A stretch of 64,000 nucleotides of DNA from a virus: the IMG/VR virus record IMGVR_UViG_3300045988_154277; one strand, given 5' to 3'. This document shows positions 5,098-60,677 of this stretch, one piece after another (position 1 is the first letter of the stretch; every line of letters starts with the position of its first letter). The position numbers and the translations under genes were made by a program. The notes beneath the pieces are model-generated. The model made no database searches. It was not told where the DNA came from and saw nothing but the letters and a program-made list of their open reading frames with translations.

Positions 5098-5106
5098 CGT
5101 ATCGAT

Positions 5107-5138
5107 AAGAACAGGGAGAGACATCTCTCCCTGTTCTT
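5107..5138 (+). terminator. Rho-independent terminator (AAGAACAGGGAGAG-acat-CTCTCCCTGTTCTT followed by CTCTATTC)
   Basis: Perfect 14-bp stem followed by a T-rich run, directly after the fibre gene stop. Confidence 0.6.
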
Positions 5139-5166
5139 CTCTATTCAACGCTAACCAGGAGGTTCT

Positions 5167-8222: not shown

Positions 8223-8225
8223 AGA

Positions 8226-9220: not shown

Positions 9221-9279
9221 CTCAAACCTCCTATACATAAGGTTACACACTCATATCATTACAACTAGGAGGTATCAAC

Positions 9280-10146: not shown

Positions 10147-10148
10147 AA

Positions 10149-10186
10149 CTATAGATACAGGGATGGTGCCATCCCTGTATCTATAG
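10149..10186. terminator. Bidirectional terminator (CTATAGATACAGGGATGG-tg-CCATCCCTGTATCTATAG)
   Basis: 18-bp perfect inverted repeat between convergent stops at 10146 and 10196. Confidence 0.6.
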
Positions 10187-10195
10187 AACATATGT

Positions 10196-11320: not shown

Positions 11321-11330
11321 GTAAGTGTCC

Positions 11331-11365
11331 TTGACTTGTCAACCTGGGTGATATATCACCCAGGT
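11331..11365. promoter_or_regulatory. Palindromic operator-like element (TTGACTTGTCAA followed by ACCTGGGTGATATATCACCCAGGT) over a sigma70-like promoter for the 10196..11320 gene
   Basis: 12+12-bp perfect palindrome. On the minus strand it reads TTCACA, then a 17-nt spacer, then ATATAT. Confidence 0.45.
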
Positions 11366-11399
11366 GATACTGTTGTGAATTGTTTAGACGTATGGTTGA

Positions 11400-12458
11400 T
11401 CAGATGATCAACCCTGCGGCAGTATCATTGCCAGATCCTGCCAGATCTTTGTTGCTGTGATCCTTCTGGATCGTGTTTTCTTGATAACGTTCTCTGGTTT
11501 CGTTCAGGAAGTTGATAAGCTCCTGAGGAACCGTCTTACCGATCGCCGAGAAGAAACGTTTCTCTTCAGCGATACCGACACAGGTGAATGCGGTGAGTAC
11601 ATCCGGAGTCAAACCGGTATCGTTCACCACCATGCAGGCGTGAAGAACATCTCCAACACCGATCACACTGTCATCTTCTCCTGCCAAGTCTTCAGCCTGA
11701 TCGCTATTGGTAGCGGTGACAGACAAAAGATAAAGTCCTGCAGGGCAGTTCATTGTGGTAGGACGCAGATAGTGCATCTTGTCGTTGTAGTCGATCTCCT
11801 CGATCTCTTTGGAGGTGAGAAGGTCGATCATTTCGATCGTTCTCTGAGCCGCTGTCTTATTGACAGCGAATCGTCCAACACCATGGTTGTTGAAAAGCAT
11901 CAATGGGAAATAATGTCCGTTCTTCTCAGCAGAGGATGCGAACGAACGAATCGTATTGATACTGTTGATGCAATCTCTCTCAGAGGAAGCATCCACAACA
12001 CCAACCAGGACTACACAACGATTGCTGTTGCGAAGGATCCTGTGCGCAAGCAGAGGGGCGATCACAGAACCAGATCCACCTGCCAAACTGAACAGGATGA
12101 ATGTGATGTCAGATGCTTGCTTGAACAGATCCGGATGGGTATCGATATACTTCTGGATCGCATCGAGGTTCTTACCACGGTCTTTCCCGGAGCCAAGCTC
12201 ACCGATCGCATCGAACGGGATCTCCTGTGGGATCCCACTGACGTTGGATGCCGAGGTATCGATCACTCGATAGTCGATCTTCGCATCGAACTGTGGGTTG
12301 CATTTGAGGATCGCTTTGAGGATGTTCTGACCACATCCTCCAGCAGCGATTACCTGAACGGTTGGTTGTTTTACCGTGGGGTTCATCACCTTCTGTTCGT
12401 CCTTGAGATCGGACAGATCAGAGAGGTTCGGAGCAGCATACGAAGGTTTCTGCGCCAT
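11400..12458 (-). CDS. Tubulin/FtsZ-like GTPase (PhuZ/TubZ-like)
   Basis: T1-like loop VIAAGGCGQNILK and T4-like loop SLAGGSGSV (compare with GGGTG[ST]G). Size is about 350 aa. RBS AAGGAG. Confidence 0.5.
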   Translation of the reverse strand: MAQKPSYAAPNLSDLSDLKDEQKVMNPTVKQPTVQVIAAGGCGQNILKAILKCNPQFDAKIDYRVIDTSASNVSGIPQEIPFDAIGELGSGKDRGKNLDAIQKYIDTHPDLFKQASDITFILFSLAGGSGSVIAPLLAHRILRNSNRCVVLVGVVDASSERDCINSINTIRSFASSAEKNGHYFPLMLFNNHGVGRFAVNKTAAQRTIEMIDLLTSKEIEEIDYNDKMHYLRPTTMNCPAGLYLLSVTATNSDQAEDLAGEDDSVIGVGDVLHACMVVNDTGLTPDVLTAFTCVGIAEEKRFFSAIGKTVPQELINFLNETRERYQENTIQKDHSNKDLAGSGNDTAAGLII

Positions 12459-14663: not shown

Positions 14664-14786
14664 AATCATTCTCCTTCTTTTAGTTGGTTGTTGCATAGTA
14701 TCTGCTTATCACTACTATTTGAAATATACCGTCCTCTCCTAAGCATGGTATGCCATTCGTACAGTATAACAAGATAGGAGACTATC

Positions 14787-17591: not shown

Positions 17592-18219
17592 ACCGCACCT
17601 CCATAACTCTCTGTTTTTCTGATGGAGTATCTTCCATAGCAGCCAACCGTTCATTCACGGTGACACCACTCAGATATACATCTTTCCTGTGGTTTACAAC
17701 ATTCTCAATGTCTTCCACAGTGAGGATCCCTCTGGTGATCCGTGTCAGAAGTCCTGTGAAGTAATTGCAAAGACCCGTTGTCTGGTCTTTCACATCCATC
17801 GATTTACCGAAGTATCCGCCTGATGGCATATGGAACATCAGTGTAGCCATGGGAGAGATCCTCCTCACCTTGCCACCGCACCAGATCACAGCAGCGATAG
17901 ATGCACACATCCCGATCGCATCGGTGATGATCTGTCCTTTGGAGTTCTGGATCGCATGGAAGATGTCGATACCAGTTTCCACCCAACCTCCATTCGAGCA
18001 AAGATAGATCGTCATCTCATCTGTCTCACGAAGGTTCATGATCGTGTGAATCAGTTCCAAATAAGGATCCGGCATGATCACTTCTTGATCCAAGAACACG
18101 GTGTACTTGCAAGAACCGTCTTCCATAGTCTTGCCGCAGATCTTACCGCTCTGTCCTGGTTTCAAAGACAGGAAAGTAGCGATCCTGGCGTTGTTCTCTT
18201 GTGGTTGTTCCATACTCAC
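17581..18219 (-). CDS. ClpP-family (S14) serine protease; possible prohead maturation protease
   Basis: IYLCSNGGWVETG...GMCASIAAVIWCGG...MFHMPSGG aligns with ClpP IYLYINSPGGVITAG...GQAASMGAFLL...MIHQPLGG (Ser and His sites). Confidence 0.75.
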   Translation of the reverse strand: MSMEQPQENNARIATFLSLKPGQSGKICGKTMEDGSCKYTVFLDQEVIMPDPYLELIHTIMNLRETDEMTIYLCSNGGWVETGIDIFHAIQNSKGQIITDAIGMCASIAAVIWCGGKVRRISPMATLMFHMPSGGYFGKSMDVKDQTTGLCNYFTGLLTRITRGILTVEDIENVVNHRKDVYLSGVTVNERLAAMEDTPSEKQRVMEVRYEA

Positions 18220-19007
18220 CTCCCGAACAGCGTGTGGAATACCTGATGGGAATGACCCTGGTCGTCAACAACGGCACCGTTCTTCGCATCCAGGATCCCA
18301 ACTACCGTTCTGGCGATAGAGACCTTATCCACTTCCAGGATATCCAGAAGCTGCTGATCATGGATCGACTCACAACCGAGTGCGTTGGCGATCTCAGGAA
18401 GATGATCTTTCGGATCGAACTCGTAGGAGAGACCCTCCAGACCTTTCACGTAGACTTTGGAAGCCTCCGCATATCCAGGGCAGTCCACGGCATCGATCGT
18501 CACAAGAGCGTTCACTCGTTGTTTGATCACATTGCCTTCCTGACCGATCTTGGCAACCAGAGACCGCAACGAGAACGCTGCGTTCTTCAGAGGATCTTCC
18601 AGACGATCCTTCAGATACGGACCATAAGGTCCAGAGCATTGGATATCACCATAGACCACAACATGTCCCTGTTCAGTAGGTTGTCCAGTCCACACACGAT
18701 GGATCGTGTGAGATTCGTTCTTGGAGTCGATGAGCATCACCCGGGGAAGATCTTTGTCTTCCCAAATCATCGGATGTCCCCACTCTCCAGTGAGCTGTCC
18801 TGCTTTCAGGCGTCTCACGAAAGGAGAGTACGGGTTGGTCAGGGCATCGACCATGCTGGTAACCTCATAGTCTTTGAGGTTACGGGATACTTTACCCAAC
18901 ACCATCAAGGGAATGTCATGGTAAACCCCGTTCTTATCAGGTTTCAGGCTCTTCTGGTTCCCTTCCAGGAGAAGAGCTGAACTGATATCAAAAGCTATCG
19001 TGTTCAT
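18216..19007 (-). CDS. Hypothetical protein upstream of ClpP; possibly prohead/scaffold-associated
   Basis: Overlaps the ClpP start by 4 nt. Has a GEWGHP segment and an SLRSL segment. Confidence 0.35.
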   Translation of the reverse strand: MNTIAFDISSALLLEGNQKSLKPDKNGVYHDIPLMVLGKVSRNLKDYEVTSMVDALTNPYSPFVRRLKAGQLTGEWGHPMIWEDKDLPRVMLIDSKNESHTIHRVWTGQPTEQGHVVVYGDIQCSGPYGPYLKDRLEDPLKNAAFSLRSLVAKIGQEGNVIKQRVNALVTIDAVDCPGYAEASKVYVKGLEGLSYEFDPKDHLPEIANALGCESIHDQQLLDILEVDKVSIARTVVGILDAKNGAVVDDQGHSHQVFHTLFGR

Positions 19008-19721: not shown

Positions 19722-21578
19722 TTATTGCACGGTATGCCACACGATGGAGTTGTGCCACGGGCTACTTCCAGAGTGTGCTGTATTCGATTCATAGAGGTGG
19801 TTAGACTCTGTACCTATGTACCAACGAGACTTCGAAGTATCGTAAGCGACGATCGTTTCCAGTTGTGCTGGATAGATGCTGTTCGCCAGTTTCCACATAC
19901 GAGATGTACCAGATGTCGTAACATCCACTAGTGTGTAGTTCCCGGTACGGAGAGGATCGATGTTCTCCACATGGATCGTACTTGCATTGATGCGGGTGAC
20001 GATCGGGAGCTGTTCTTCTGGTTCCACAGGTTCTTCCGGTGTGGGTGGTGTATCTTCACCACCTGGTTCTTCCTCCTCTACCGGTAATCGAGCTACCGTA
20101 AGATCGTACAAGAGATAAGAAGGAAGTCTCCTAACATCTGTGTACTCCATCGAAAATGGATTGTACTTATCGGTGTACGAAGTATTGTGTTTCCGGATCG
20201 CAAGGTTCGGAGCCACTAGATCATACAAATTATCACGATGCATCAATCGAAGTTCTTGTTGTACAGGGAATGTCACAAGTTCGTTCGAGTCGTACTGGAT
20301 CCTGACATAGTCGACAACTTCTCTGGTATACCGGTTGATCAAAAGACCACCTGTTTGACAAGGGAACGTCAATTTGTCCGGATAGAGAACCATAAGAGGT
20401 TCGATGAAGCTGTGAACCAGAGGTTCTTCACTATGCAAGATCGCTACAAAAGGAACCGTTTTATCCGCATATTTTTGGATCGCAAGTTCCTCTTCTGTTG
20501 TCCCAGTGAAATGATCTGGATCGTTGAATAAGTTGTGGATCGTAGCTTCCACATTGACACGAACCATTGTGGTGTTCTTCAAGGTCTTCTGGAACTTCTG
20601 GAGGTTCGCTGCCAAGATCACCTCAAGGAGTTGACGATCCAGTTCTATTTCAACACGATATCGTGTTCCTTCTGAGAAGATCTTGACGTGGTCTGTGGAT
20701 GACTCGAACATCCGTCCACCGATGCACACCATCGGGTATCCAGACGTTGTTCCTTCCGGAAGCAAAAAAGAGATCTTGATGATAGAGTGTTGGTAGACTT
20801 GGATCGTCCCTTGAAATTTCACAGGATCATCGTCTTTTACGACAGTATCCTGGATCGATAATTTCTCATCGACACTTGTGATCTCAACTGGTTCACAGTC
20901 TGACAATTTGACGATCGTAAGATCACCGAGATCACTGTAATCCACAAGGAGGATGTTCTTGTTCAGGTCTTCTACTTTCGATGCTAGCTGTGCGCCTTGA
21001 TAAGCGAACAGAACGTCTTCGTATACTTCTGGATAACAAGCGATCCCATTGACGAACGGGATCGTATTCTGGAACTTCACCACTTCTCCTGGGATCGCTT
21101 TGCTGAATACAAGATCTGGAAGATTCCATTTTAAACGATTGTTGTTACGGACTCCCGGAGAGCGGTGAGATCCATAACCGACATCGATCCCGAAGTTGTT
21201 CTCCACACTGTAGATGTTCAACTGTGTTGTGATATTCGTAGTAAATGGAGTCGGGATCAGTGTTTTAACACCATCTTGGATGGTCAGCATCCTGTAAGGA
21301 ACCATGGTAGCAACACGATATCGATCCAATGTAGTAAGGTCCAACTTCGTCAGATACTCTTCCATCTGAGTCCAGTCGGTTACTCCATTCGCAGAGACTG
21401 GTTGTTCTGCATAGAGTTGCATCAGATCAATATACTTCATAACACCATCATCGTCCTCTAAACAAAGGACGAGATCCTGTGTTCCTTGGTAGGATAGTGC
21501 ATCCGAGAGTGTGATAGCAGAGGTATCATAGCAAGAGCTATGTCGATCTGCGTGACGTATGATACCCTTAATAAGCAT
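19722..21578 (-). CDS. Large hypothetical virion-associated protein (acidic Pro/Glu-rich stretch); portal-like by position only
   Basis: Roughly 620 aa, first gene of the operon that ends with ClpP. GAGAGGTG RBS before the internal ATG. Confidence 0.3.
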   Translation of the reverse strand: MLIKGIIRHADRHSSCYDTSAITLSDALSYQGTQDLVLCLEDDDGVMKYIDLMQLYAEQPVSANGVTDWTQMEEYLTKLDLTTLDRYRVATMVPYRMLTIQDGVKTLIPTPFTTNITTQLNIYSVENNFGIDVGYGSHRSPGVRNNNRLKWNLPDLVFSKAIPGEVVKFQNTIPFVNGIACYPEVYEDVLFAYQGAQLASKVEDLNKNILLVDYSDLGDLTIVKLSDCEPVEITSVDEKLSIQDTVVKDDDPVKFQGTIQVYQHSIIKISFLLPEGTTSGYPMVCIGGRMFESSTDHVKIFSEGTRYRVEIELDRQLLEVILAANLQKFQKTLKNTTMVRVNVEATIHNLFNDPDHFTGTTEEELAIQKYADKTVPFVAILHSEEPLVHSFIEPLMVLYPDKLTFPCQTGGLLINRYTREVVDYVRIQYDSNELVTFPVQQELRLMHRDNLYDLVAPNLAIRKHNTSYTDKYNPFSMEYTDVRRLPSYLLYDLTVARLPVEEEEPGGEDTPPTPEEPVEPEEQLPIVTRINASTIHVENIDPLRTGNYTLVDVTTSGTSRMWKLANSIYPAQLETIVAYDTSKSRWYIGTESNHLYESNTAHSGSSPWHNSIVWHTVQ

Positions 21579-21662
21579 GGGCAACACCTCTCGTTAAAGG
21601 TTGACTTTTAAGCATAGCATGACCCGATCAAGTGTGCTAGAACACAAAAGAATAAGCTTAAA

Positions 21663-47614: not shown

Positions 47615-49315
47615 TTACACCATCATCTTCACCGGCATCAGCCTGATCCAGTCATCGGAGGTGCGCACTGCGATGTAGGAGATCAGAACATTCGAACACG
47701 GCTGGAAGAAGATCGTGAACGTACGAGGATCATTCTGCTTGGACTTCACCATGAAGTACTCACAGTGAGAGGACGGTTTTTCCGGACCACCAAGATCCTG
47801 GGGTTCACAGTTGAACCTGAAGTTCGGCAGTAACATACCGTTGAACGGAAGCGTGGTATACACGACGTTCCTGTTCTTCATACGGACAACCGTATATCTG
47901 AGCAACAGGTCGATCATGTTGGTATAGATCTGCATCGCCTCCAGTGCCTGCGGAGTCTTCTCACCATCGTTGTCGGTATGGAGAGACATCTCACGATATC
48001 TTGCGATATCGCGGATCGGGTGCCCATCCACCAAGACATTGCCATAAACAGCGATGTAGTCGTTCAGACCCTCCGGTGTATTGGGATCGCTCAGCTGGAT
48101 ATCGAGGATCGACTTCAAGATCGTGGAACGAGCCACTGTGTTCAGACGATCACGGAACCCAGCCTGGGACCGAAGTTTGTCGACTTTGGCATCCACCGTC
48201 TCTTCCAAGTCCAGATAGGACAGCAGTTCCCTCAGTGAGTTGATCTTGAACGAACTGTCGGACGGATCCACCGTATTGTCATACAAAGCACCATACATGG
48301 CTGCCATGTTGAACTCCAGGATGAAGATCCCTTCCAACCTGTTCTTGAGATTGGCTTTCAGTTCGCCGAGGATGGCTTCCATGTTGCGGATATATGCACA
48401 CTTGGAGTTCGCCGGAGATGCTTTCGCCATCTCTTTCAGCTTCTTGATCACCGCTTCCGATTCTGCTCTGGGAACCTCATAGGCTTGCAACTGGTTGTAG
48501 TTGACCGATATGTACCTCTCTCTGGAGAGACAGTCCCGCATCCCATGGATCGCCGTCTCGACGGCTTCCTTCGGAGATACGAATCCACGATCCGTATCGA
48601 TCGTAGCCATATCGATCTCCTCTTCCGTAGCGGCATCCTTGTACTGGACGATCGTACCATCACCCCAACCGAGGTGAACATCCGTACCCGCACGACCACT
48701 TTCCGTATTGGTGACCAAGACCGGGGGATTGTAGAGTTCGGGAAGGTCCATCTTCTTCGTCCAGGTCTTCAGATCGGTACCTTCCGAAGACGGCTGCGGC
48801 TGTTGTACAGGCTGCTGAGGCGGAGTGACGATCTGTGTGTTCACCGGAGCTGCTTGCGGGGCAGTCGGAGGCGTCACCACACCATTCGGGTTCGCATAGA
48901 ACCCACCCTGATGAGGAACCGGAGCTTGAACCTGCCCAGTGAACAGAGAGGTTGTCTGATATCCGTTGTTCGCCAACATCGGGTTGTACATCTGAGGTTG
49001 TACCACAACGCCGTTGGTATACTGCGGCTGGTACATCGCCTGACGCTGAACCTGAGCGAACCTGGCAAGCATCTGCTGGATGAGATTCGACAGATACTGC
49101 TGGATCTGTTGATCCGTCGGTTCCGTTCCAAGGGGGAACTTGTTGAAGATAAGGTTGACGAACTCACCGAAGTGCTGGTTGAACTCGTTCACCAGATACG
49201 GCTGGACGTTGGGCAGGATCTGCCCATTGGCGACGAAGGTCTGCAGCATGTTGTTGAACAGAGCATTCACCCTGTTCGAGAACATCGCTGTCGGCGTGTA
49301 GCTAATATTAGCCAT
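47615..49315 (-). CDS. Hypothetical Gln/Pro-rich protein (start moved to MANISY)
   Basis: AGGAGAAAACATT before the internal ATG. Q/P-rich low-complexity middle segment. Confidence 0.45.
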   Translation of the reverse strand: MANISYTPTAMFSNRVNALFNNMLQTFVANGQILPNVQPYLVNEFNQHFGEFVNLIFNKFPLGTEPTDQQIQQYLSNLIQQMLARFAQVQRQAMYQPQYTNGVVVQPQMYNPMLANNGYQTTSLFTGQVQAPVPHQGGFYANPNGVVTPPTAPQAAPVNTQIVTPPQQPVQQPQPSSEGTDLKTWTKKMDLPELYNPPVLVTNTESGRAGTDVHLGWGDGTIVQYKDAATEEEIDMATIDTDRGFVSPKEAVETAIHGMRDCLSRERYISVNYNQLQAYEVPRAESEAVIKKLKEMAKASPANSKCAYIRNMEAILGELKANLKNRLEGIFILEFNMAAMYGALYDNTVDPSDSSFKINSLRELLSYLDLEETVDAKVDKLRSQAGFRDRLNTVARSTILKSILDIQLSDPNTPEGLNDYIAVYGNVLVDGHPIRDIARYREMSLHTDNDGEKTPQALEAMQIYTNMIDLLLRYTVVRMKNRNVVYTTLPFNGMLLPNFRFNCEPQDLGGPEKPSSHCEYFMVKSKQNDPRTFTIFFQPCSNVLISYIAVRTSDDWIRLMPVKMMV

Positions 49316-49856
49316 AATGTTTTCTCCTATGCATAGATTACTTAAGTGACCAGTTGGACGACTGACCACGGGTCATTAGTCGAATACGTGCGAGATTTCT
49401 TTATACCAGGACGGTATGATAAAGAAACCTGTCTCCATGTCGACTTGGATCATTGGGTTGATCTCACCGGATACAACTGGTGCGGATGGCCTAATGTTGT
49501 TGTTATCATAGCGTTTGCTCGTTAGACAAACTATTCTCTACGTTTCCGTAGATGTTCGGACTATCTTTCAATCCTTATGACTAAGGACAACCGGTCTTTG
49601 GAACACACTTGTGTTCTACTCAGCGTTTCAGCATGATAGTCTCTGATCCTTCTTCCTGGTAACAGGAAGCTTGGAAGCTGATATCCCATTATTACTTCAT
49701 AAGAAGTCTGATCCTTAGCACCATGTGGATACATGGCTTTTATTTCAGCATAGATCATATCAATCATTCTTTCTGCTTTCGCGACTATCACGTTCATCCT
49801 TACGGATCCCGTTGTAGTTGATTGATCTCTTAGGGTATCCCAGCCGTTAACACGGT

Positions 49857-51347
49857 TTATGCAGCCACAGTGTTACCACTATAGCGCCCCCATACACACC
49901 AGTCATGTGTGAGAGGTAGAGCCAAGATACTTTCAACCACCAACTGAGACGGGTGTGCCTTGAGGAGTGCGACAGGCATATTCCGTCCACCTGTTGTCGA
50001 TTTGGTTTCTGTATTCTCCAGTGAGCGAAATCTCTTCGTGAGTACAGTCAGAAGACTATTGTCGTTGCAAATCGTTGGATTCGCACGGAACACGGAGTTC
50101 GCCATCATCCAGCTCTCTCCTTGAGAAGCTGTGGTGACGAATCGTTTCACCGTATCCGGTGTCAATCCTTCGTTCTTCGCATTGATCACTCCGAAAAGCT
50201 TCGTATTGATTGACGACACCAATGGTGCCATCAACTGACTCAACGAACCGATCTTCTTAGAGAACAAGTTCGTCGGTTCGTAACTGACGATCCACCGATC
50301 GATGTTGTAGAACACCTCTCGGAGAAGTTCGTAGATGCCGTTGACTTGGATGCCGATCGTAGCCAACTGATACTGTGCCGGTGGGTCCAGCAAAGTCGCA
50401 GTGGTCTCAAGATGCTTCTCTGCATTGTCGTAGAGCAGCTGAGCATTCGTAGTACTCGGATAGGTGTATTTGCCTAGCACGGTCTTGTAATAGACCGGGT
50501 GGGTCGCTATCAAATCACGTAATCCGAATCTCGTATACTCAGTGAGACACATCAGGTAAGATGCGATCACCCTTCTCTTGAAGAGATCGTCAAGACAGGA
50601 GTTGTGAACCTTAAGGTAGATATCTTCTCTGATCTCGATGTGAGAGTACTCGTTCGACTCTTCCATCTTCGGTACCAAGGAGATCTCTCCAGGCTGAAAC
50701 CCATAATACTGCATCGTCTTATCGAACGATAGTTCGACCAGATGATACAGGATGATTGGGGTAACACCAGCCTTCTTCCCGCGTCCTCTCTTTCCTTGAT
50801 GGATCTTCACTGTGGGTACGATCTCACGACATACTCTGCCGTCAGTCGTTGTGAAGACGAACTGCTCTGATCTTCTGAAAGTCAATGGTGCACGCATGAC
50901 TTTAATGATCAGACCATCTTGGATACGATGAAGACCGCCGCGCTCTACGATGGCGAACATCGGGAAATATTGCGTGTCGGATAGGATCACCGCTCCATGA
51001 TCCAGATAAGGGATACTGATGTGCAGTGGGTATTGCACATTTTCGAACTCGAAGATGAACTTCAACTGTTCGAATGAACTCTTCTGGATTTGGATCTTCT
51101 TCTTCAGGATCGTGTTGTTACGGATATACTCGATACGCTCGTCAGGAGTTAACCGTTGATACCCAATATAACGTAATCGACCTTTGAAAAGCTTTACTGA
51201 TTCTTGGAACATCACATCGAGATAATCAGGTATCTTCTTAATACTGTTCTCTCTGAAGTGAAGGAGGAAGTCGTCGTTGAAATCCGGGAGCAGATCACTT
51301 GCTCCGATCAGGACATTCCTCAGTACTGGATTGAAATGTTCATCCAC
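49857..51347 (-). CDS. Hypothetical protein (496 aa)
   Basis: ORF co-directional with the 51376.. gene. Confidence 0.45.
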   Translation of the reverse strand: MDEHFNPVLRNVLIGASDLLPDFNDDFLLHFRENSIKKIPDYLDVMFQESVKLFKGRLRYIGYQRLTPDERIEYIRNNTILKKKIQIQKSSFEQLKFIFEFENVQYPLHISIPYLDHGAVILSDTQYFPMFAIVERGGLHRIQDGLIIKVMRAPLTFRRSEQFVFTTTDGRVCREIVPTVKIHQGKRGRGKKAGVTPIILYHLVELSFDKTMQYYGFQPGEISLVPKMEESNEYSHIEIREDIYLKVHNSCLDDLFKRRVIASYLMCLTEYTRFGLRDLIATHPVYYKTVLGKYTYPSTTNAQLLYDNAEKHLETTATLLDPPAQYQLATIGIQVNGIYELLREVFYNIDRWIVSYEPTNLFSKKIGSLSQLMAPLVSSINTKLFGVINAKNEGLTPDTVKRFVTTASQGESWMMANSVFRANPTICNDNSLLTVLTKRFRSLENTETKSTTGGRNMPVALLKAHPSQLVVESILALPLTHDWCVWGRYSGNTVAA

Positions 51348-52698: not shown

Positions 52699-54456
52699 TT
52701 AACGTAAGACCCATCTGGCTTCATCGATCGCTTTGGTGATATCCGAGTCGAATCGCCATTTGGTTCCAGTGTTGTCACCGAACGATTTCCCGTTGTTGAA
52801 GATCTGTTCGGCAGCTCTAGAGAGTTTCCGATAAGAGCTCCTACCGGAATTATACGAGTTCGAAGATCCATTCTTCGAGAAGACGACTTCTCCTACATCC
52901 TTCAATGCATCCAACTGTCGATAGGTCTCATCATCCAAGACTTCCTTAGCGATACGATCTCCGACATTCGTCAGTTTGTTGAAGAGTTTAGAGTCAGTTG
53001 CTTCATTCATCAACTTTGATACATTATCCACGATGGATCGATCAACACCCAATGCTTCTGCAACATCCCCAACGGTGGATTTCACAGCCTTACAACCGTA
53101 GGATGCGCCTTTGGACAAGATGCCACCAACATTGATCCCAAGGTCATCGATGAGATCCGTGTAATTGCTGAGGTTGTACGGGTTGTTGATCACATTCTCA
53201 GCCATACTGATGATGTCGGATGAGAAGATCCCTTTGTCCTTGGAGAAGTTATCCAAGAGTTTACCGAAGGTGGATACATCTCCGGCATTCTTGGCAACAT
53301 CCAGACCTTTGGTGATGATACCATCGACCAAAGAACTAGTATCAGAGAGGTTGATACCTCCAACACTTTCCAGGACATCACCACCGACACTTTTCGCGAA
53401 GCTGGTAGCAGCACTGGTGATGTTGCTGAGATCGAAAGACCCATTGTTCGATATCGCATCGACAACAGAGCCACCGACACTATCGAGAACTTTATCCGTG
53501 ATACCTTCAAACGTACCACCGGTGATGTCACTGAAGATACTGCTAGCAGTTGTCTCACCGAGGATCGAAGTCATCGAGTTAGAACCGAGCTGCATCCCGT
53601 TGATGCTGGATGCTAGAGTGGAAGTCAGACCAGAGCTTCCACTTAAAGCACCGGTGATCAAACTGGCAGTACCCGATCCACCGAGAAGACCTCCCGTGTA
53701 TCCAGATACCACATTACCAACCAGATCACTTCCGATCGAAGAGAGACTCGGCGTCTCACCTTGGATGATCCCCAACCCAGCATCGGCTACGGTACCAACA
53801 ACAGAAGATGCGATCGTTGGAGGAACCACACCCCCTGTCATAGCAGAGACATACATCCCAGCACCGGATACAGCAAGGTCTCCTAACCCACTGTTCAGAA
53901 GACCTTCTGCACCGCTAGCCAGAGATGATAAATCCCCACTCAGAAGACCGCTAGCTCCACTTGTCAGAGAAGAGAGACCACCTCCCATAGCAGAGCTCAA
54001 TCCACCAGTCAAGGAGGAGAGCCCACTACCACCCAACGCAGATGCTAAACCTCCACCCAGAAGGTCTTTACCTTCGTTGAATAACCCTTGTGTCAATGAG
54101 TTAGCTGTGAGTTCTCCGGTTAAACCACCCAGCAGATCAGAAGACAACGGGTTCGTCACTGCACTTGGCATGATCGATGTCAAGGCAGGTGCAGTGAACC
54201 CAGTTACAAACATATCCTGTGCATGAGACATCATGTCCGTGGCGTAGCTCTGCATCGCAGACAGGTCCAAGTTCGCGATGTCGAGAGCGATCCCACCACG
54301 GACGGTATCGAGAAGACCACGTACATTCGTCGCAGCTTGTAACTGCGACATCATGTTGTTGGCACTCTCGTTGATGATGTCCATTGGATTAAACGGAGCG
54401 ATCTTAAACAACCCACTAAGGTCGAGCGGACTGACTCCGGTTAAATCTGTCAACAT
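52699..54456 (-). CDS. Gly/Ser/Leu-rich low-complexity virion protein (tape-measure- or ejection-protein-like)
   Basis: Repetitive GGLSS/SGLxG segments. RBS AAGGAGAG overlapping the stop of the giant upstream gene. Confidence 0.45.
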   Translation of the reverse strand: MLTDLTGVSPLDLSGLFKIAPFNPMDIINESANNMMSQLQAATNVRGLLDTVRGGIALDIANLDLSAMQSYATDMMSHAQDMFVTGFTAPALTSIMPSAVTNPLSSDLLGGLTGELTANSLTQGLFNEGKDLLGGGLASALGGSGLSSLTGGLSSAMGGGLSSLTSGASGLLSGDLSSLASGAEGLLNSGLGDLAVSGAGMYVSAMTGGVVPPTIASSVVGTVADAGLGIIQGETPSLSSIGSDLVGNVVSGYTGGLLGGSGTASLITGALSGSSGLTSTLASSINGMQLGSNSMTSILGETTASSIFSDITGGTFEGITDKVLDSVGGSVVDAISNNGSFDLSNITSAATSFAKSVGGDVLESVGGINLSDTSSLVDGIITKGLDVAKNAGDVSTFGKLLDNFSKDKGIFSSDIISMAENVINNPYNLSNYTDLIDDLGINVGGILSKGASYGCKAVKSTVGDVAEALGVDRSIVDNVSKLMNEATDSKLFNKLTNVGDRIAKEVLDDETYRQLDALKDVGEVVFSKNGSSNSYNSGRSSYRKLSRAAEQIFNNGKSFGDNTGTKWRFDSDITKAIDEARWVLR

Positions 54457-54469
54457 AATCAGACTCTCC

Positions 54470-57400
54470 TTAGAGGTTGGTATCGAGCATCATCGATTGA
54501 AGGAGTTTACTTCCCACTACAGATGCTCGAGTACGACTATTCGGATCGATCGTATCCAGATCAGCTTCTCCGTTCTCTTCCAACATCCTGCGGAACTCGC
54601 TATACCCGTGGATGTTACCACCACGGATGTTCACCAATTCCTGCATCGTCTTGCTGAGTCCACGAGCAGCGAGGATCTGGATCTCCGGGTTCGTGATGGA
54701 ACAAGCGCGACTGTCACCAGTAACTTGCCCAGTCAACCCATCGATCGTCCGATCATTATCCGGAACTGAAATCTTCTCATCCAAGAACTGTTGTTGTCTT
54801 CGGATGGGGAGTTTCACGAACATATACTTGTTGTCGGTCAGATACTTACGACCAGTTGCACGGTCATACATCCAAACACGTTGGAAGAGATCCAACCCGA
54901 TCATATCACAAGCTTTCAGAAGATCTTCGTTCTGCAAGTTCACGATCATGTTGGGAGCGACGATGTGGAGCTGCCACTTGCCTTCCTTCATGTAGTTCAT
55001 GAACTGATCAAACTCTTTGTCATTCATCTGTCCTATGATCTGACGATACCGTTTGGAGTTCAGTCCGGACGGTTCCATCGTATCACAGAGCTTACAGATG
55101 TAGTCCAAGATCTCCTTCTTTTTCTGAGCGATCTTGGATGATGCGGTTGATGCTTCCATAGAAGAACCTAATTGTTCTGTTGACGATTGAGACTCCGAAT
55201 CAAAAGAAGTACATTCCAATGATTCGACAGCTGGTCCGAACTGTTTTACCATACTTGGATCAAACTTAGTTTCCCAAGTCACAGTGATCTTCTGTTTCGA
55301 AGTGTACTTCAATGGTTCATCATCCACATATCGACACTCACGTTTCGTATCTCCACCACCAAACGTTTTTAACTTAGACTTTACATCATCAGTCAGTTTG
55401 ATAGAGTAAAGATACCCAGTGGATTCACCATGTGTTTCTTTAAACGTCTTTGCGTTGTGATACACAGTGATGTGTTTTGGAATTGTATTAAGTTTGGAGA
55501 CGTCTTGTTTCCAAACATCATAACTCCAATGAATAGAACGATAACCGTGGTTCTCTTCTCCATACAAATCTTGTTTGTTTATGATGAAGATAGAAGCGAT
55601 CCCTTTCAGAGGAGAAAGGAAGATTGACTTCTTATATTGAGAAGCTCGTCCATAACCTTTCAGTTCTGTCAGATCGTTTGGAGATCCATGATAGAGTTCA
55701 TCACCCCATGTTTTCATCTGAGCAGAAGTTAGCTTTTCAGCTGACATCTTCAGCACATCAGTCTTCAAGACCATCAAGTACATCTTCTCTCTAGTTTCTA
55801 CAATCTTGAATCCCATAGACTCATACAGATGACACACCTTCTGGTTCGTCTTGTACGCACAGATGTAGATCTCAGTTGTGATTGGGTTGTGTTTCAGCAC
55901 ATATTGAATCGTAGCAGATACACTCTGCTTACCATAGCCCTTTCCCTGATACTTGGGGAAGATACCGAGATTAAACAAATCCACGGTGTTGTCTTTATAG
56001 AACATCACACCGATCGATCCGATCACCTCTGATCCATGCATCAACAAGAAGAACTGACGTCCTTTCTTCAGATCAGCTTTGACATCACTCGGAGTCCATT
56101 TCTTATAGTCATCTGGATCGTCGTCAATCAGATCAGCTGTATCTGTCACATACTTGACTTCTACCTGATTGGATAGATCCAGTTCCTTCAAAGTAATGGA
56201 ACTAGCTGGTAACGTCAGAGATTCAAGACTTATAGGTAACACTTCCATAGACACATGGACAACATCGCCTTCCAATTCCAGACTGGCTAAAGACTTAGAC
56301 ATCCTTTTTGGTTTCGGGGCTTTCCCTCCAGTCAGTTTTGGATTATGAACGTATTGTACATCCACATTGGTGTAAGTATTTGGTTGTATCCCATTAATAC
56401 TCAAATGATTTGGATCACCAGTGTATCTTAGGATAGTCTTCTTGTCTGATACTGTTTCCGAAAGAAAGTCTTGTGTACAGCGGTTTGTTGGAACTTTGTA
56501 AACATCGACCGACACAGTCTGCGTTGGCTTACAACGATATCTCCAATTAGGTTTTCCAATATCGTTGTATTCAACGATGATCAGAGAGTTGTGAAGATTG
56601 ACCTGTTTTGGTATAATGTTAAACAGAACAGTTCCACGTTTCATATTCCAAGTTGCAGTTTTAGCACCAAGCGCAACAGCATAATTGCTATCTGCACACA
56701 CTAGAATTCTATTCCCTACCTTAGGAAGATCCGTTCCACCTGCTGGAATACCAACGTAAACAGGTTTCCCCTTAACGTCAACCACTTCAACTTCGCCAGC
56801 CTGGACATTAGCTGCCTTTTCCTCTGACACCACGCAATCCTCAGGGATATCCAACGACTCAAAACCACGGAAGAACGCTTTCACGTTCTCACGTTCTTTC
56901 TTATCAACGATCTGATCGAACTGGTCTCCGGACCACTGCATGATATCCTCCATACGGGTTGAGAGGTTCGCTTCCTTGCCGGTATCAAGAACCAGACTGA
57001 TGATTTCACAATCTGTATCCTGACCGATACGGTGCACACGGTCAGATGCCTGCTGATACTCGATCGATCTCCAAGGTTTGTTCAGGAAAATCACTGTGTT
57101 GGCAGCCGTCAAGGTTGCTCCAGTACTCAACATCTTCAAAGATGCGATCAATGGATTCAACGACTGATCCTCTTGGAACCGTTTTACCGTGTTAGTCAGT
57201 TCAGAAGCTGTTTTACCGTATACAGCAAGTGGAGAATACCCTTCCTTCTGGAAGTAGTTATAAGCCAACTCGATCGTATCCACATAAGACGTGAATACAA
57301 CAGTCTTCTTCATGGCATCATCCACATACTGCTTCAGATCAGCAGCTTGCATCATCTCAGAGGTCATCTGCATACGGAGATGTGTCAATAAGGTACCGAT

Positions 57401-59623
57401 CACCTCTCCTTTGATCTTGAGAGGAAGGTACTTCACAACAGACTTCGACCAGATGAACTTCTTCTTGAGATCATCAGGAAGAGCAGGGATCAGAACGTCG
57501 CGTTCATACTGATTCGCCCAAACGATATCAGCGTTACCACGAGCATCAACGATATTCGAGTTGCGCAACTCGTCGATGATGTTCATATACCGTTGGAACT
57601 CAGGTTGATCACCGATACCAGGTTCATTCTGCAACCATTCGATCGCGTCTTCGAATGCTGTGATATACGCTGTGAGATTCTGTTGATAATAATCCTGTCG
57701 TTCTTTGACGAAGGTAATGATCTGTTTCTCCACTTGGGATACCGTATACTTCCATCCTGTTGACATACGGACAGAGACCGTTGTTTCTTTCTTCTCAGGA
57801 AGTGACAAGATATCCTTCGTAACACGAGTGATCATACGAGTGAGTCTTGCATTTAAGACGTCGTTTGCGATCGCCGTGTTGAAACCGAATGTCGCTTTGA
57901 AGATCGCACATGCTTCATCATCGAAGTAAGGATCCAAAACAGACATGATCGGGATGAGTTCGACTCCTGCGCACTTGATGGGCGTGCCACTGAGCAAGAG
58001 TAGATCTGCATTCTGATTGTATCTGGCAAGATCCAACAACAACTGTGTACGAAGAGACGAAGTTCTCAGGAAGTTATGAGACTCATCTACGATTACACCG
58101 AGGTTGTTGAGTTTGTTCTTGATCAAGAACTCTTTCACTTCTTCGATCCTCTCATAGTTCACGATGATCCATCGGGAGGATGTAGTGAGAGGACCTTTGG
58201 TATACCCAGCAACCCACACCTTCTGTTTTTGGTTGAAGAACTTAATCAGATGTGTGTTCCAAGTCTCCAACATCGTGTTCTTCGGACAGATGATAACGAC
58301 ATGTTCTTTCTTCAGAGCTGTCATCAACCCTAGAGCTGTGATCGTCTTACCAAGTCCTTGTTCGAAGGACAACAGATAACCTCTCAGGTGGTTCGTCGTC
58401 TTATTGGTTACATAGTTCTTGATGAACTCGATCTGATGCTCATAGAACTTGGCGTTGATCTCTCTATTGAGAACAGTCAGATCTGCGAATTCTGTCGGTT
58501 GAACAGCAGTACCTACCCAAGTATGACTTTTGATCGTATCGGTTAAGCTAACAGGGAATTGAAACTTATCCAAAAGATAGATGAGTTCCGGTATGAAGAA
58601 CTTATGGATACTGATCGTTCTCTTCTGAGCGAAGAAGAACCGGATACCGATCACCTTGAACAGGTGTTCCAGTTTCGTAGTTTTATACTCTTTGCGGAGT
58701 TTGTTGAAGAACTGGATCACCGGAAAGTTCCGTATCGTGTAATACATCCCCTCTTCCACAACAGGATCGAACAACCCTTCTGAAGATATCACAATAGCTT
58801 CAGTAGATGTGGTTTCCTCTCCGACCTGCGAAGTCACACTCATCTTAAGCTTAGGCGGATCCGGGATCGGCTCGCTGCTCTGAACATAGAGTTTAGATGG
58901 GATCCACATCAAGCAAGCTTCCAACACTTGAGTATATCTCGGACCATAAGACCAACGTTTGTCTTTGTTCTTCAGCCACCAGTCTTTCGCGGTATCACCC
59001 ATCTCGATACCAACAGCAGCCCAGTCAGCTACCATTTCACCGAGAGCCATCAGGATCGCAGGATGCCCTCCCTTATCCTTATATGCATCCTTCAGTTTTT
59101 CATCTGAGATCACCCACTGTTCTTTCTCAGGATCCGGACGATGCATATAGTTCTCAGGGTGATGGTCGTTGAGTTGGTGGTGCTTAGGCCATTCAATCTC
59201 TTCATAGACTCGCTTTGCTTCTGGAGAGATCTCATAGAGATCCTTATACTTATAAAGCGGAGCATTCAGTGCGAAAGACGCAACATGTTCGTTCCCTTGA
59301 AGCTTATCGTAATCATGCTGTTGGACTTTGGCGATGAACCGATCGAAATATCCTCCGAACTGGAAGAACTCGCGAAGGTAGTTCGCGCAGATCTTCACAT
59401 TCTCAACGTGGTTCTTCGTCCTTTGAATATGGTAACGTAAGATCCACTGAGCCAATTCAGCATCCGACAGAACAGTGTTGTTCTTCGTGATACAGGACTC
59501 GATGATCTTTAATACAGTTCTGTTAGGATCACACTCGATCAGTACTTGACCGCCTTTTTTAGACAGGTTGTTATAGTACATCGTATCGAATGGGACCTGT
59601 TTGAAATTGAGTTGGTCACTCAT
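54470..59623 (-). CDS. Giant multidomain protein (1717 aa): SNF2-family helicase plus GNAT acetyltransferase plus uncharacterised N- and C-terminal regions
   Basis: Helicase motifs LLSFEQGLGKTITALG (I), VIVDESHNF (II, DExH), LLLSGTPI (III) and QASDRVHRIGQ (VI). GNAT motif A IFPKYQGKGYGKQ and motif B HLYESMGFKIV. RBS AAGGAGG. Confidence 0.75.
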   Translation of the reverse strand: MSDQLNFKQVPFDTMYYNNLSKKGGQVLIECDPNRTVLKIIESCITKNNTVLSDAELAQWILRYHIQRTKNHVENVKICANYLREFFQFGGYFDRFIAKVQQHDYDKLQGNEHVASFALNAPLYKYKDLYEISPEAKRVYEEIEWPKHHQLNDHHPENYMHRPDPEKEQWVISDEKLKDAYKDKGGHPAILMALGEMVADWAAVGIEMGDTAKDWWLKNKDKRWSYGPRYTQVLEACLMWIPSKLYVQSSEPIPDPPKLKMSVTSQVGEETTSTEAIVISSEGLFDPVVEEGMYYTIRNFPVIQFFNKLRKEYKTTKLEHLFKVIGIRFFFAQKRTISIHKFFIPELIYLLDKFQFPVSLTDTIKSHTWVGTAVQPTEFADLTVLNREINAKFYEHQIEFIKNYVTNKTTNHLRGYLLSFEQGLGKTITALGLMTALKKEHVVIICPKNTMLETWNTHLIKFFNQKQKVWVAGYTKGPLTTSSRWIIVNYERIEEVKEFLIKNKLNNLGVIVDESHNFLRTSSLRTQLLLDLARYNQNADLLLLSGTPIKCAGVELIPIMSVLDPYFDDEACAIFKATFGFNTAIANDVLNARLTRMITRVTKDILSLPEKKETTVSVRMSTGWKYTVSQVEKQIITFVKERQDYYQQNLTAYITAFEDAIEWLQNEPGIGDQPEFQRYMNIIDELRNSNIVDARGNADIVWANQYERDVLIPALPDDLKKKFIWSKSVVKYLPLKIKGEVIGTLLTHLRMQMTSEMMQAADLKQYVDDAMKKTVVFTSYVDTIELAYNYFQKEGYSPLAVYGKTASELTNTVKRFQEDQSLNPLIASLKMLSTGATLTAANTVIFLNKPWRSIEYQQASDRVHRIGQDTDCEIISLVLDTGKEANLSTRMEDIMQWSGDQFDQIVDKKERENVKAFFRGFESLDIPEDCVVSEEKAANVQAGEVEVVDVKGKPVYVGIPAGGTDLPKVGNRILVCADSNYAVALGAKTATWNMKRGTVLFNIIPKQVNLHNSLIIVEYNDIGKPNWRYRCKPTQTVSVDVYKVPTNRCTQDFLSETVSDKKTILRYTGDPNHLSINGIQPNTYTNVDVQYVHNPKLTGGKAPKPKRMSKSLASLELEGDVVHVSMEVLPISLESLTLPASSITLKELDLSNQVEVKYVTDTADLIDDDPDDYKKWTPSDVKADLKKGRQFFLLMHGSEVIGSIGVMFYKDNTVDLFNLGIFPKYQGKGYGKQSVSATIQYVLKHNPITTEIYICAYKTNQKVCHLYESMGFKIVETREKMYLMVLKTDVLKMSAEKLTSAQMKTWGDELYHGSPNDLTELKGYGRASQYKKSIFLSPLKGIASIFIINKQDLYGEENHGYRSIHWSYDVWKQDVSKLNTIPKHITVYHNAKTFKETHGESTGYLYSIKLTDDVKSKLKTFGGGDTKRECRYVDDEPLKYTSKQKITVTWETKFDPSMVKQFGPAVESLECTSFDSESQSSTEQLGSSMEASTASSKIAQKKKEILDYICKLCDTMEPSGLNSKRYRQIIGQMNDKEFDQFMNYMKEGKWQLHIVAPNMIVNLQNEDLLKACDMIGLDLFQRVWMYDRATGRKYLTDNKYMFVKLPIRRQQQFLDEKISVPDNDRTIDGLTGQVTGDSRACSITNPEIQILAARGLSKTMQELVNIRGGNIHGYSEFRRMLEENGEADLDTIDPNSRTRASVVGSKLLQSMMLDTNL

Positions 59624-59680
59624 CAGTAACCTCCTTGGTTCGACATATCTATTGTGAATTGCATAGCATGCCTGAACATC

Positions 59681-59717
59681 AAGAAATCTAACTGAGGTAG
59701 AGAGCTACTCTACCTCA
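59681..59717 (-). terminator. Hairpin CTAACTGAGGTAGAG-agctact-CTCTACCTCAGTTAG
   Basis: 15-bp stem after the stop at 59735. A degenerate TTCACAATAGATAT box follows on the minus strand. Confidence 0.5.
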
Positions 59718-59734
59718 GTTAGGGTCGATATATC

Positions 59735-60520
59735 TTACATATTGTTCAGTGTACTGCAGATCGCTCTTACAGTACTGATCTCCTGGCGCACTACAAGATC
59801 AGAGAAGTTCAACCAGCATACAGCACATTTACGAATATCTCGTACCGTGCTATCGTTCGATGTGCGAAGCTTCGTATTGTATTCATTTACAACACGATTA
59901 CCAGCATCATCAAGTTTCCAACTGATATCATCCATCTGCAGAACGATAGACTGCATCCGTTTCACGGCTTGTTCAGAACTCCATTTGGAAGATTTGAACT
60001 TGACGACGGGACGAGCCACTCGCGGATCGAAGGTCAAATCATCGTTCTTGTCCAGATAGAAGTTCTTCTGACCGTTCAGAATGGTACGGATCGTTGCAAG
60101 CAATTTCACCATAGAAGTATGCTTCAACGGATCGATACCGACGAAGCCTTGGGTCACTTTCGTAGTAGCCAAAACGAGAGCTTGGATATCCTCGTACTTG
60201 TAGGGATCGGTTTCTTTCTCGGCAAGACGTTTAGGATCCAAGCTGTTCAGCCAATCATAGTAACCTTCGAATGTTTGATTGATTCCATTTTGCCAATTCT
60301 GTTTCTGCTGAGCTCTTCGACGTTCAGCACGCTCTTTCTGTTTCTTGCGGAACCACTCGATAAGATTGGAGATGATACCCTCTTCCGAGATGTAGAGAGA
60401 CTCGGTTCCGATGAATAACTCATCTGGAATACGATCCGATGTGACCGTTTGCATACGTACGTCGAACGATGGATCATTCGTGGTTTTGTTCAGGATATCA
60501 CCCAGGTGAAGATCGATCAT
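59735..60520 (-). CDS. Hypothetical protein (start moved to MIDLHLG)
   Basis: AAGGAG 6 nt before the internal ATG. Confidence 0.45.
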   Translation of the reverse strand: MIDLHLGDILNKTTNDPSFDVRMQTVTSDRIPDELFIGTESLYISEEGIISNLIEWFRKKQKERAERRRAQQKQNWQNGINQTFEGYYDWLNSLDPKRLAEKETDPYKYEDIQALVLATTKVTQGFVGIDPLKHTSMVKLLATIRTILNGQKNFYLDKNDDLTFDPRVARPVVKFKSSKWSSEQAVKRMQSIVLQMDDISWKLDDAGNRVVNEYNTKLRTSNDSTVRDIRKCAVCWLNFSDLVVRQEISTVRAICSTLNNM

Positions 60521-60677
60521 AGTAAACTCCTTGATGTTGATAGTTACATAGGATGCTCTGTGCATCAAACGTTCTTCAAACAAAAAGAAAACATCAATAC
60601 CATCGAATACAGGAGGAGTCTCCAGCTCCTCCTGGGTTGCGTTGTTGATGTTCAGCTATAAACTAAGATAGGTTAGG

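Follow-up and report, generated by a model that had tools for sequence, protein, structure and literature searches.

What does a phage do with a protein that joins a SNF2-type helicase to an acetyltransferase? This question is raised by a gene at positions 54470..59623 (-) of a 64,000-nucleotide stretch of the IMG/VR virus record IMGVR_UViG_3300045988_154277 (the whole stretch is called the window here). The gene is one uninterrupted open reading frame (ORF) with an ATG start and encodes 1717 amino acids (aa), a chain of about 195 kDa. A first interpretation made from the letters and their translations (the sequence-only reading) had described it as a fusion of SNF2 and GNAT domains, and the motifs it named are all readable in the translation (GLGKT, DESH, SGTP, QQASDRVHRIGQ and YQGKGYGKQ). 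The length of the ORF that it gave was confirmed as well, since the frame is single and the identical protein was found again on separate contigs, about 278 kb long, in IMG and in ENA. The follow-up analysis leads us to a different answer. We propose, with a probability of about 0.6, that the gene encodes a head-packaged, co-injected and protease-cut polyprotein of a phiKZ-like phage, a 'polyvalent protein' built on a virion RNA polymerase (vRNAP) subunit.

By homology and modelling, the order of modules from the N-terminus is a leader, DUF5662, a SNF2 ATPase of the phiKZ gp203 type, a first putative ADP-ribosyltransferase (ART)-fold domain, the GNAT domain, a second putative ART-fold domain and a C-terminal fragment of a vRNAP beta subunit (betaC). 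Domain annotation, which had been suggested as a check, placed the Pfam domains SNF2-rel_dom, Helicase_C and Acetyltransf_1 above their gathering cut-offs. About 400 aa at each end had been called uncharacterised. This description did not hold, as the N-terminus contains DUF5662 (aa 64-234) and the C-terminal 220 aa or so correspond to PHROG 3233 over its full length. The betaC module, which on the homology described below redefines the gene, had thus been overlooked. A scan of the 1717-aa protein with NCBIfam returned sub-threshold generic matches only, and megablast of the gene against 50,697 phage records gave no matches.

The betaC module occupies positions 54473..55135 (aa 1497-1717; this and all other modules and linkers lie on the minus strand). 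Its last 218 residues matched PHROG 3233, 'RNA polymerase beta subunit', with E 1.8e-64 over profile positions 3-222 of 225. A tblastn search with the C-terminal 316 aa recovered 293 phage records, all of them phiKZ-like jumbo phages, at about 35% identity and with E values up to 4e-37. The matched phage genes are stand-alone and encode about 225 aa; their annotations read 'virion structural protein' or, in other records, 'RNA polymerase beta subunit'. PhiPA3 gp172, annotated as similar to phiKZ gp149, matched the window with E 1.4e-39. An alignment of betaC with its homologues contains 26 invariant columns, and the stretch 'NPEIQILAARGL..T.QEL', judged by eye, may resemble conserved region I of beta. 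We conclude from these comparisons that betaC is a full-length homologue of the vRNAP subunit known as gp149 in phiKZ, gp172 in PhiPA3 and gp218 in SPN3US, with the C-terminal 221 aa aligning throughout at about 35% identity.

The context of the module is what differs. In cultured phiKZ-like phages the subunit is a stand-alone gene of 218-237 aa, whereas here it forms the last module of 1717 aa. Among cultured phages none was found with SNF2 joined to betaC: no record covered more than 39% of the query, and the modules were separate in all records listed. In IMG/VR, betaC stands alone (218-237 aa) at 76 of 80 loci, and the SNF2 fusion is confined to the closest relatives (at least 50% identity). 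phiKZ gp149 is a subunit of the vRNAP, a polymerase that is stored in the head and enters the host together with the DNA (10.1101/2024.03.24.586471; PMC10612078; PMC8287921). SPN3US gp218 (25 kDa, 'vRNAP betaC') is an essential ejected head protein, and particles of a gp218 knockout lose all five vRNAP subunits, which shows that assembly of the vRNAP precedes its entry into the prohead (PMC5694885). In 201phi2-1 the vRNAP beta subunit sheds a 275-aa N-terminal propeptide (PMC5694885).

The helicase core (56879..58735, aa 297-915) likewise leads to a head protein. Its membership in the SNF2/Swi2 group is supported by motifs I (GxGKT), II (DExH), III (SGTP) and VI (QxxxRxxRxGQ) together with both Pfam domains, SNF2-rel_dom at aa 396-625 (64.4 bits, cut-off 24.9) and Helicase_C at aa 768-867 (60.5 bits, cut-off 23.5); its best PDB matches are SNF2/Rad54/SWR1/ISWI proteins. 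The module matched PHROG 62 with E 2.6e-77, and by tblastn 446 phage records, among them OBP_263, a 'virion-associated SNF2-domain containing helicase'. BLASTP against phiKZ gp203, whose record carries the annotation structural protein, aligned aa 297-925 of the query with residues 23-653 of 703 (29% identity over 656 columns, E 2e-78), and the likeness to gp203, OBP_263 and RAY gp131 is end to end over this part of the query. On these grounds the SNF2 core is a homologue of the chimallivirus head helicase phiKZ gp203 and belongs to a jumbo-phage clade tied to phage RNA polymerase (RNAP). The two proteins differ in that gp203 is a separate protein of 703 aa encoded far from gp149, while the query adds DUF5662, the cassettes and betaC covalently. 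According to PMC12676376, which cites Thomas et al. 2012, gp203 of phiKZ undergoes proteolytic processing, is a head-packaged protein that co-pellets with the DNA of the capsid, and can be dispensed with in the laboratory. An 'ESLE' lies at residues 649-653 of phiKZ gp203 (L005, 30657-32768), with 50 aa between it and the C-terminus. The query's FESLD, at the junction of SNF2 and cassettes, aligns with this 'ITESLE', and the pair may be a conserved processing site that ends the helicase module.

A helicase that works with the phage RNAP, possibly in a RapA-like manner, had been predicted from phyletic pattern and gene neighbourhood (Iyer et al., PMC7824862), and the same link was the subject of speculation by Prichard et al. 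for RAY gp131 (10.1101/2023.02.24.529968). The fusion and this published prediction together point to a functional link between helicase and RNAP. Escherichia coli RapA/HepA offers a parallel as a SNF2-family ATPase functionally coupled to a multisubunit RNAP, and the fusion described here would be 'Rosetta-stone' support for such a coupling. No specific similarity was found, however: generic SNF2/Rad54-like proteins rank highest, and RapA appeared neither among the NCBIfam matches, which would have meant similarity at equivalog level, nor among the PDB matches at E<=1e-5.

Is the fusion a family trait? A search of 5.8 billion proteins yielded 87 relatives, most of them on metagenomic contigs of 250-300 kb, and the segments of the query were mapped onto them. 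The fused architecture is present in about 80 clusters (90% identity, many samples), and two IMG/VR genomes carry the fused gene. betaC was found in 81 of the 87 relatives and ends the protein in every one of these 81, and SNF2 and betaC occur together in 77 of 87, down to 50% identity. Conservation is uneven along the chain, with a median identity across relatives of 93% for the leader and for betaC, 80% for SNF2 and 75% for DUF5662. The stretch that follows DUF5662 (39 to about 1500 aa) is hypervariable, and so is the one that separates SNF2 from betaC (27 to about 1000 aa). Even 17 relatives that are at least 94-96% identical in SNF2 and betaC range from 1281 to 1666 aa and differ in their cassettes. 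The cassette region is a recombination hot spot, and closely related phages get different effector sets. Inteins and introns were considered as a source of the inserts and rejected, as the inserts are ordinary enzyme domains in frame and the Pfam scans gave no match to intein or homing-endonuclease families.

Variants of the architecture are informative as well. Four relatives on full-size contigs (P0066, P0067, P0076 and P0082) lack SNF2 and keep the leader, DUF5662, cassettes and betaC. In a SNF2-less locus with the same synteny (L086; ENA ERZ16268218 scaffold_190, 270 kb; gene 8001-11405) no helicase was found within 8 kb. Such variants fit the literature, in which the helicase is dispensable and the vRNAP essential. 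An intermediate form of 565 aa is encoded at 7993-9690 of a 235-kb genome (L009, IMGVR_UViG_3300001528_000425). It has no helicase, and its betaC carries a 340-aa N-terminal extension made up of a domain of about 270 aa of no assigned family and a linker with many S/A/G-x-E motifs. A 361-kb IMG/VR contig (IMGVR_UViG_3300045988_163688) has the fused gene twice, in opposite orientations near both ends (L006 and L007), probably through concatenation in the assembly or through terminal redundancy and not by a true duplication. The relatives' contigs include one from a Hadza gut metagenome and another from a sample labelled BRIT16-1.

We then asked whether the modules would be separated. phiKZ-type prohead proteases cut after S/A/G-x-E, a site refined to LSxE for phiKZ (PMC10449902), and the site of the SPN3US prohead protease is A-x-E (PMC10052503). 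The window has a gene for a homologue of this head maturation (prohead) protease of the phiKZ type at 18216..19007 (-) (PHROG 3014, E 1.9e-29), and tblastn matched it in 150 records of phiKZ-like phages, some of them annotated as head maturation proteases. The linkers between the modules of the query contain the sequences ...TSTEAIVISSEG..., ...FESLDIPEDCVVSEEKAANVQAGE..., ...ASLELEGDVVHVSMEVLPISLES... and ...AVESLECTSFDSESQSSTEQLGSSMEAS.... The linker after DUF5662 (58757..58858, aa 256-289), a hot spot whose inserts in relatives range from 0 to about 1500 aa, has the motifs GEE, STE and SSE; the one after SNF2 (56792..56878, aa 916-944) has FESLD, SEE and AGE; and the one before the GNAT cassette (56177..56302, aa 1108-1149) has ASLE, VSME and ISLE. 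In the last linker (55136..55234, aa 1464-1496, AVESLE...SSTEQLGSSMEAS) lies the predicted maturation site that would free betaC. With S/A/G-x-E sites in the linkers and the protease gene in the same window, the protein has the features expected of a prohead-protease substrate.

The clustering of these motifs was quantified. The 153 linker residues of the query contain 12 copies of [SA]xE (7.8 per 100 aa) and its 1564 module residues contain 8 (0.51 per 100 aa); composition-matched shuffles of the linker residues averaged 5.1 (P = 0.0002). Across the family, the 30-aa flanks of ART-like domains hold 3.9 and 6.7 motifs per 100 aa compared with 1.08 inside the domains, which is 7-11 standard deviations above composition-matched shuffles. 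Nearly all relatives listed have an [S/A]-x-E-[A/V/T/Q] at a distance of 8-12 aa from the start of the betaC homology, on its N-terminal side, whichever cassette precedes it (examples are SSMEAS, LSMEAQ, LSVEAQ, VSTEAL and PSMEAA), and the initiator methionine of stand-alone gp149 homologues aligns a few residues past this motif. The extension of the 565-aa intermediate ends, directly before betaC, in HVESLEAL...SMESRQ...PGMEALSV...PAMEAMQV.

From these observations a course of events can be proposed. The gene may be transcribed late and as its own unit, as faint signals upstream of it suggest. The betaC end would assemble with the other vRNAP subunits and the chain would be carried into the prohead; as the SPN3US vRNAP must assemble before prohead entry, the whole chain would enter together with the polymerase. 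There the protease encoded at 18216-19007 would cut the S/A/G-x-E (LSxE-like) sites that cluster in every linker, a step to which motif statistics and conservation point. The cuts would free the helicase, the cassette enzymes and betaC, the latter at about the N-terminus of stand-alone gp149. At infection all pieces would be ejected with the DNA, the vRNAP would transcribe early genes, and the SNF2 translocase might have the polymerase or the injected DNA as its substrate, with a RapA-like or DNA-handling role. T4 Alt and phiKMV Rac (PMC5512222, PMC7824862) offer an analogy for the putative ART-fold and GNAT enzymes, whose targets for modification might belong to the host or to the phage. Recombination at the cassette region would diversify the injected enzyme set, while betaC would be needed for its essential function and would plausibly also open the way into the prohead. 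A more far-reaching version of this proposal, to which we give somewhat less than an even chance, regards the vRNAP subunit as a delivery vehicle. betaC would drag hypervariable effectors (ART-fold, GNAT, HD, NADAR and others) together with SNF2 into the capsid, and once freed by the protease these would enter the host at time zero. The locus would then be polymorphic-toxin-like, with its conserved termini serving as recombination anchors and its payloads exchanged among near-identical phages.

Several points weigh against the cleaved and packaged polyprotein. In this phage, the case for packaging and for cleavage is made from homology and motif statistics. The S/A/G-x-E motif is short and the linkers are rich in Ser and Glu, although the shuffle controls argue against a pure composition effect, and a conserved flexible acidic linker is a possible alternative explanation of the pattern. 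The linker borders behind the count of 12 motifs in 153 residues were drawn after the sequence had been viewed, while the family-wide test used hidden Markov model envelopes. Cleavages in SPN3US nearly all remove N-terminal propeptides and are not internal cuts at multiple sites (PMC10052503). Single-sequence and profile searches of the PDB with betaC returned no RNAP chain, so that its identity as an RNAP subunit rests on the literature on gp149 and gp218. Moreover, betaC and the helicase are single-copy within the 64 kb of the window, which is a part of a genome of about 278 kb, and the case for a late promoter consists of three matches to a 10-mer.

The main rival accepts the polymerase and denies the cleavage. 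The protein would be an uncleaved giant vRNAP subunit, with the SNF2 motor and the cassettes permanently tethered through betaC. The polymerase would then have its own RapA-like factor for recycling or translocation in the SNF2 module, and would carry the modifying enzymes with it. This is an unlikely but serious option. Gene fusions usually report a physical or functional association, this one is kept in 77 relatives down to 50% identity, and the helicase-RNAP link was predicted independently of it (PMC7824862; 10.1101/2023.02.24.529968). Large proteins such as N4 vRNAP are packaged and ejected intact, and N4-type vRNAP-ART fusions exist (PMC5512222). Against a permanent tether, conserved protease-type motifs cluster at every junction and also lie exactly where stand-alone gp149 homologues begin, and phiKZ gp203 is itself a processed head protein (PMC12676376). 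betaC is a free protein of about 225 aa at 76 of 80 IMG/VR loci and in all cultured phages. The SNF2-less variants and the freely varying number of cassettes further indicate that the upstream modules are not needed for betaC function.

The sequence-only reading had supposed a virion-packaged, co-injected multi-enzyme protein akin to P1 DarB. Its first half survives, as the protein, with two modules homologous to phiKZ and SPN3US head proteins, is very probably packaged and injected along with the DNA. The second half, a DarB-like anti-restriction protein that shields incoming DNA, we consider very improbable. The pair of an adenine methyltransferase and SNF2 defines the DarB type (PMC5512222), and because Pfam, PHROGs and NCBIfam revealed no DNA methyltransferase domain in the query, the kinship fails at its defining feature. 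The SNF2 module is an orthologue of gp203 and not of DarB, its constant partner is an RNA polymerase subunit, and phiKZ-like phages are thought to guard incoming DNA by compartmentalisation (10.1101/2024.03.24.586471). What such a role has in its favour, besides the probable packaging, is that SNF2 combined with modifying enzymes is the general layout of polyvalent proteins, of which DarB is the archetype (PMC5512222), and that the NADAR, HD and other domains of some relatives would be plausible counter-defence enzymes.

Even less probable is an unpackaged replication or recombination helicase of the cytoplasm or nucleus with a degenerate or repurposed betaC-like tail. Jumbo-phage SNF2 helicases have also been proposed as substitutes for UvsW in recombination (PMC7824862), and the homologues in OBP and PhiPA3 lie near UvsX and RNase H genes. 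Yet both constant modules are orthologous to experimentally confirmed head proteins, and betaC is among the most conserved parts of the family (median 93%) and hence not degenerate. The TATG-type motif upstream, the apparently separate transcription unit and the protease motifs in the linkers argue in the same direction. An early replication or recombination helicase had been named beforehand as the case that would overturn the sequence-only reading, and the existing evidence points the opposite way. A merger of adjacent genes by sequencing or assembly error has practically no probability, since IMG and ENA contigs of independent origin encode one identical protein, about 80 clusters share the architecture and two IMG/VR genomes carry it.

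With cleavage and packaging as the preferred reading, the protein can be set beside known systems. The polyvalent proteins of Iyer, Burroughs, Anand, de Souza & Aravind (2017, PMC5512222), which include P1 DarB and N4-type vRNAP fusions, also place unrelated enzymatic domains of variable content in one chain, and their delivery with the DNA is likewise inferred. They share the vocabulary of HD, InPase, GNAT and NADAR domains with the relatives of the query and with other carriers of its second ART-fold domain. Unrelated domains whose architectures vary between relatives are indeed what we found in this family, and transfer into the host with the DNA is suggested by two modules whose homologues are proteins of the head that are ejected. 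The anchor differs, as it is a fragment of a multisubunit vRNAP and not an N4-type single-subunit RNAP or MuF. Furthermore, the query has no methyltransferase-SNF2 pair and no built-in zincin-like peptidase; its release is predicted to occur via the capsid maturation protease, and its lineage is chimallivirus-like. T4 Alt, a head-packaged and injected ADP-ribosyltransferase, and the T4 internal proteins are trimmed by the prohead protease at an x-x-E site. They resemble the proposed polyprotein as enzymes that the head carries and releases along with the DNA, so as to reprogram the host (PMC5512222). This likeness is one of concept. The putative ART-fold cassettes of the query are highly divergent and would be delivered within a polyprotein that also contains a polymerase subunit.

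The gp203 helicase, the gp149 betaC, packaged ARTs and GNATs, polyvalent proteins and processing by a prohead protease were all known already; what appears new is their fusion. The searchable literature yielded no account of them joined in a single polyprotein that swaps cassettes and is anchored on a piece of a multisubunit vRNAP. If the delivery-vehicle version is correct, it would reveal a way of loading and diversifying injected phage effectors that has not been described before, and it would provide natural 'Rosetta-stone' evidence for the gp203 helicase as a vRNAP cofactor. The role of gp203 was earlier only predicted from neighbourhoods, and the conserved fusion argues that the helicase works or travels with the injected polymerase. 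For prohead targeting and release, the linker motifs represent precise predicted cut sites, and the fusion suggests that cargo piggy-backs on vRNAP assembly. The cassette region would be a catalogue of candidate early effectors, injected before a protective compartment exists, and it includes two unannotated putative ART-fold families. The family comes from human-gut metagenomes, where phiKZ-like phages have hardly been studied.

The two putative ART-fold cassettes, L1 (56303..56803, aa 941-1107) and L2 (55235..55708, aa 1306-1463), have no Pfam model. Their structures were modelled from alignments of family members. The L2 model reached a predicted local distance difference test score (pLDDT) of 86, and the L1 model 78, in the best only of five models. 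Both models suggest a divergent fold of the ADP-ribosyltransferase superfamily. A Foldseek search of the L2 model against BFVD gave no significant match, and hhalign detected no relationship between L1 and L2. Invariant residues of L2 comprise a Y-H-(G/A)-(S/T)-like motif followed by N, G and Y (Y-H...N...G..Y), and those of L1 are Y, T, F, E and LRY-G. With 68 copies and at most three per protein, the L2-type domain is the commonest cassette of the family. A HMMER scan of 1.84 billion representatives located it in 234 clusters. Some carriers are small stand-alone proteins, and others are large and contain DUF5662, GNAT, HD, SNF2, InPase, ligase/phosphoesterase, transglutaminase-like or Ham1 domains.

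The GNAT cassette (55775..56116, aa 1170-1283) contains the acetyl-CoA motif QGKGYG and matched Pfam Acetyltransf_1 at aa 1176-1272 (E 1.1e-11, 45.5 bits, cut-off 20.7). It is RimI-like, yet stays below the NCBIfam equivalog cut-off (48.8 versus 86.4). The query's GNAT segment was matched in 19 of the 87 relatives, and in distant members a GNAT lies upstream of SNF2. The domain is thus optional and variable in position, and the SNF2-GNAT combination, once seen as the defining pair, loses that status. Other cassettes of the relatives include canonical HD and NADAR domains and many without a Pfam match; examples from relatives and from other carriers of the L2 domain are NADAR in P0077 (aa 12-163), HD in P0072 and P0074, and InPase in P0146. 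NAD+ and ADP-ribose chemistry is represented on both sides, by a 'writer' (ART-fold) and by an 'eraser' (NADAR, ADP-ribose-processing). A paper on NAD+ in gut jumbo phages (PMC11662467) makes no mention of ART, SNF2, RNA polymerase or virions.

At the other end of the protein, the N-terminal 60 aa (N1, 59444..59623) are unusually conserved. N1 is 88-100% identical in relatives whose adjacent DUF5662 is at just 67-75%, and its median over 67 relatives is 93%. It may be a leader, a targeting signal or a recombination anchor. DUF5662 itself (58922..59434, aa 64-234; Pfam PF18907, E 2.2e-10, 40.8 bits, cut-off 27) displays an HD-like pattern of residues, H...HD...HH...D, read off the sequence, and is also N-terminal in other large multidomain proteins. 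A sequence search with the N-terminal 260 aa gave no meaningful PDB match, and tblastn of the N-terminal 291 aa against cultured phages gave no matches.

Signals around the gene are compatible with its own transcription. Between the upstream gene (59735-60583) and the 1717-aa gene lies a perfect 15-bp hairpin followed by a T-tract (ATTTCTT) at 59688..59722 (-), and through this terminator-like element the gene looks like a transcription unit set apart from its upstream neighbour. Further perfect palindromes of this kind were seen in several other intergenic regions of the window. The sequence CATGCTATGC at 59661..59670 (-), 38 nt before the ATG, includes TATG, the core of phiKZ late promoters (PMC7618050), and is a candidate core of a late promoter of the non-virion RNAP type. 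CATG[CG]TATGC has three exact copies in the window, at 14744-14753(+), 21612-21621(-) and 59661-59670(-), where by our estimate about 0.24 would be expected. All three are intergenic and lie in the same orientation 25-40 nt 5' of start codons (genes 14787-15734, 19722-21587 and the 1717-aa gene). With one mismatch allowed there was no enrichment in the window (7 matches, 5.3 expected), and sigma-70 promoter-like sites occurred there at chance level. As a sign that the gene is expressed late, the CATGCTATGC/TATG site is weak.

On the downstream side, the stop codon abuts the ribosome-binding site of the next gene, as had been stated (...CTC TAA GGAGAG TCTGATT ATG). That gene (52699..54456 (-)) encodes a Gly/Ser-rich protein of 585 aa and is probably translationally coupled; the synteny is kept in relatives. 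Its product had no match in Pfam, PHROG or tblastn against phages, which leaves the earlier label of a tape-measure or ejection protein unconfirmed.

The claim that the gene lies between structural genes is correct at a distance only. A tail sheath, several virion proteins and the head protease are encoded farther off in the window, while no family could be detected for the immediate neighbours. For these (585, 410, 282, 178, 106, 571 and 584 aa), scans with Pfam and PHROG were empty, with the sole exception of a 'polymerase' match at 49857-51347. This gene (49857..51347 (-)), three genes downstream, encodes 496 aa that resemble the N-terminal subunit of the beta chain of a non-virion RNAP (Erwinia phage RAY, 21% identity, E 2e-11). 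It ends without an obvious continuation, and small ORFs separate it from the next large ORF (47615-49369 (-)), whose 584-aa product found nothing by tblastn. The region may be a split or interrupted RNAP gene. With a PhuZ-like tubulin at 11400..12458 (-) (phrog_4733, E 1.1e-33) the window has the mark of a chimallivirus-like phage, and the mix of tubulin, sheath, virion proteins, protease and RNAP-like genes makes it a mixed neighbourhood and no pure structural operon. The source is a jumbo phage of the human gut that is phiKZ-like (chimallivirus-type) on this gene content. Among the phiKZ and PhiPA3 proteins compared with the 64 kb by tblastn, only gp203 and gp172 matched; phiKZ gp178, gp180, gp177, gp179, gp201 and gp202 and the neighbours of PhiPA3 gp172 found nothing. 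Homologues of the vRNAP proteins gp178 and gp180 may be encoded in another part of the genome of about 278 kb. Near the start of the window two ORFs of about 1130 aa each overlap on opposite strands, 1726-5148 (-) and 1732-5097 (+). The plus-strand ORF alone has PHROG matches (phrog_31410 and a weak tail-fibre match), and the minus-strand ORF is probably a shadow ORF.

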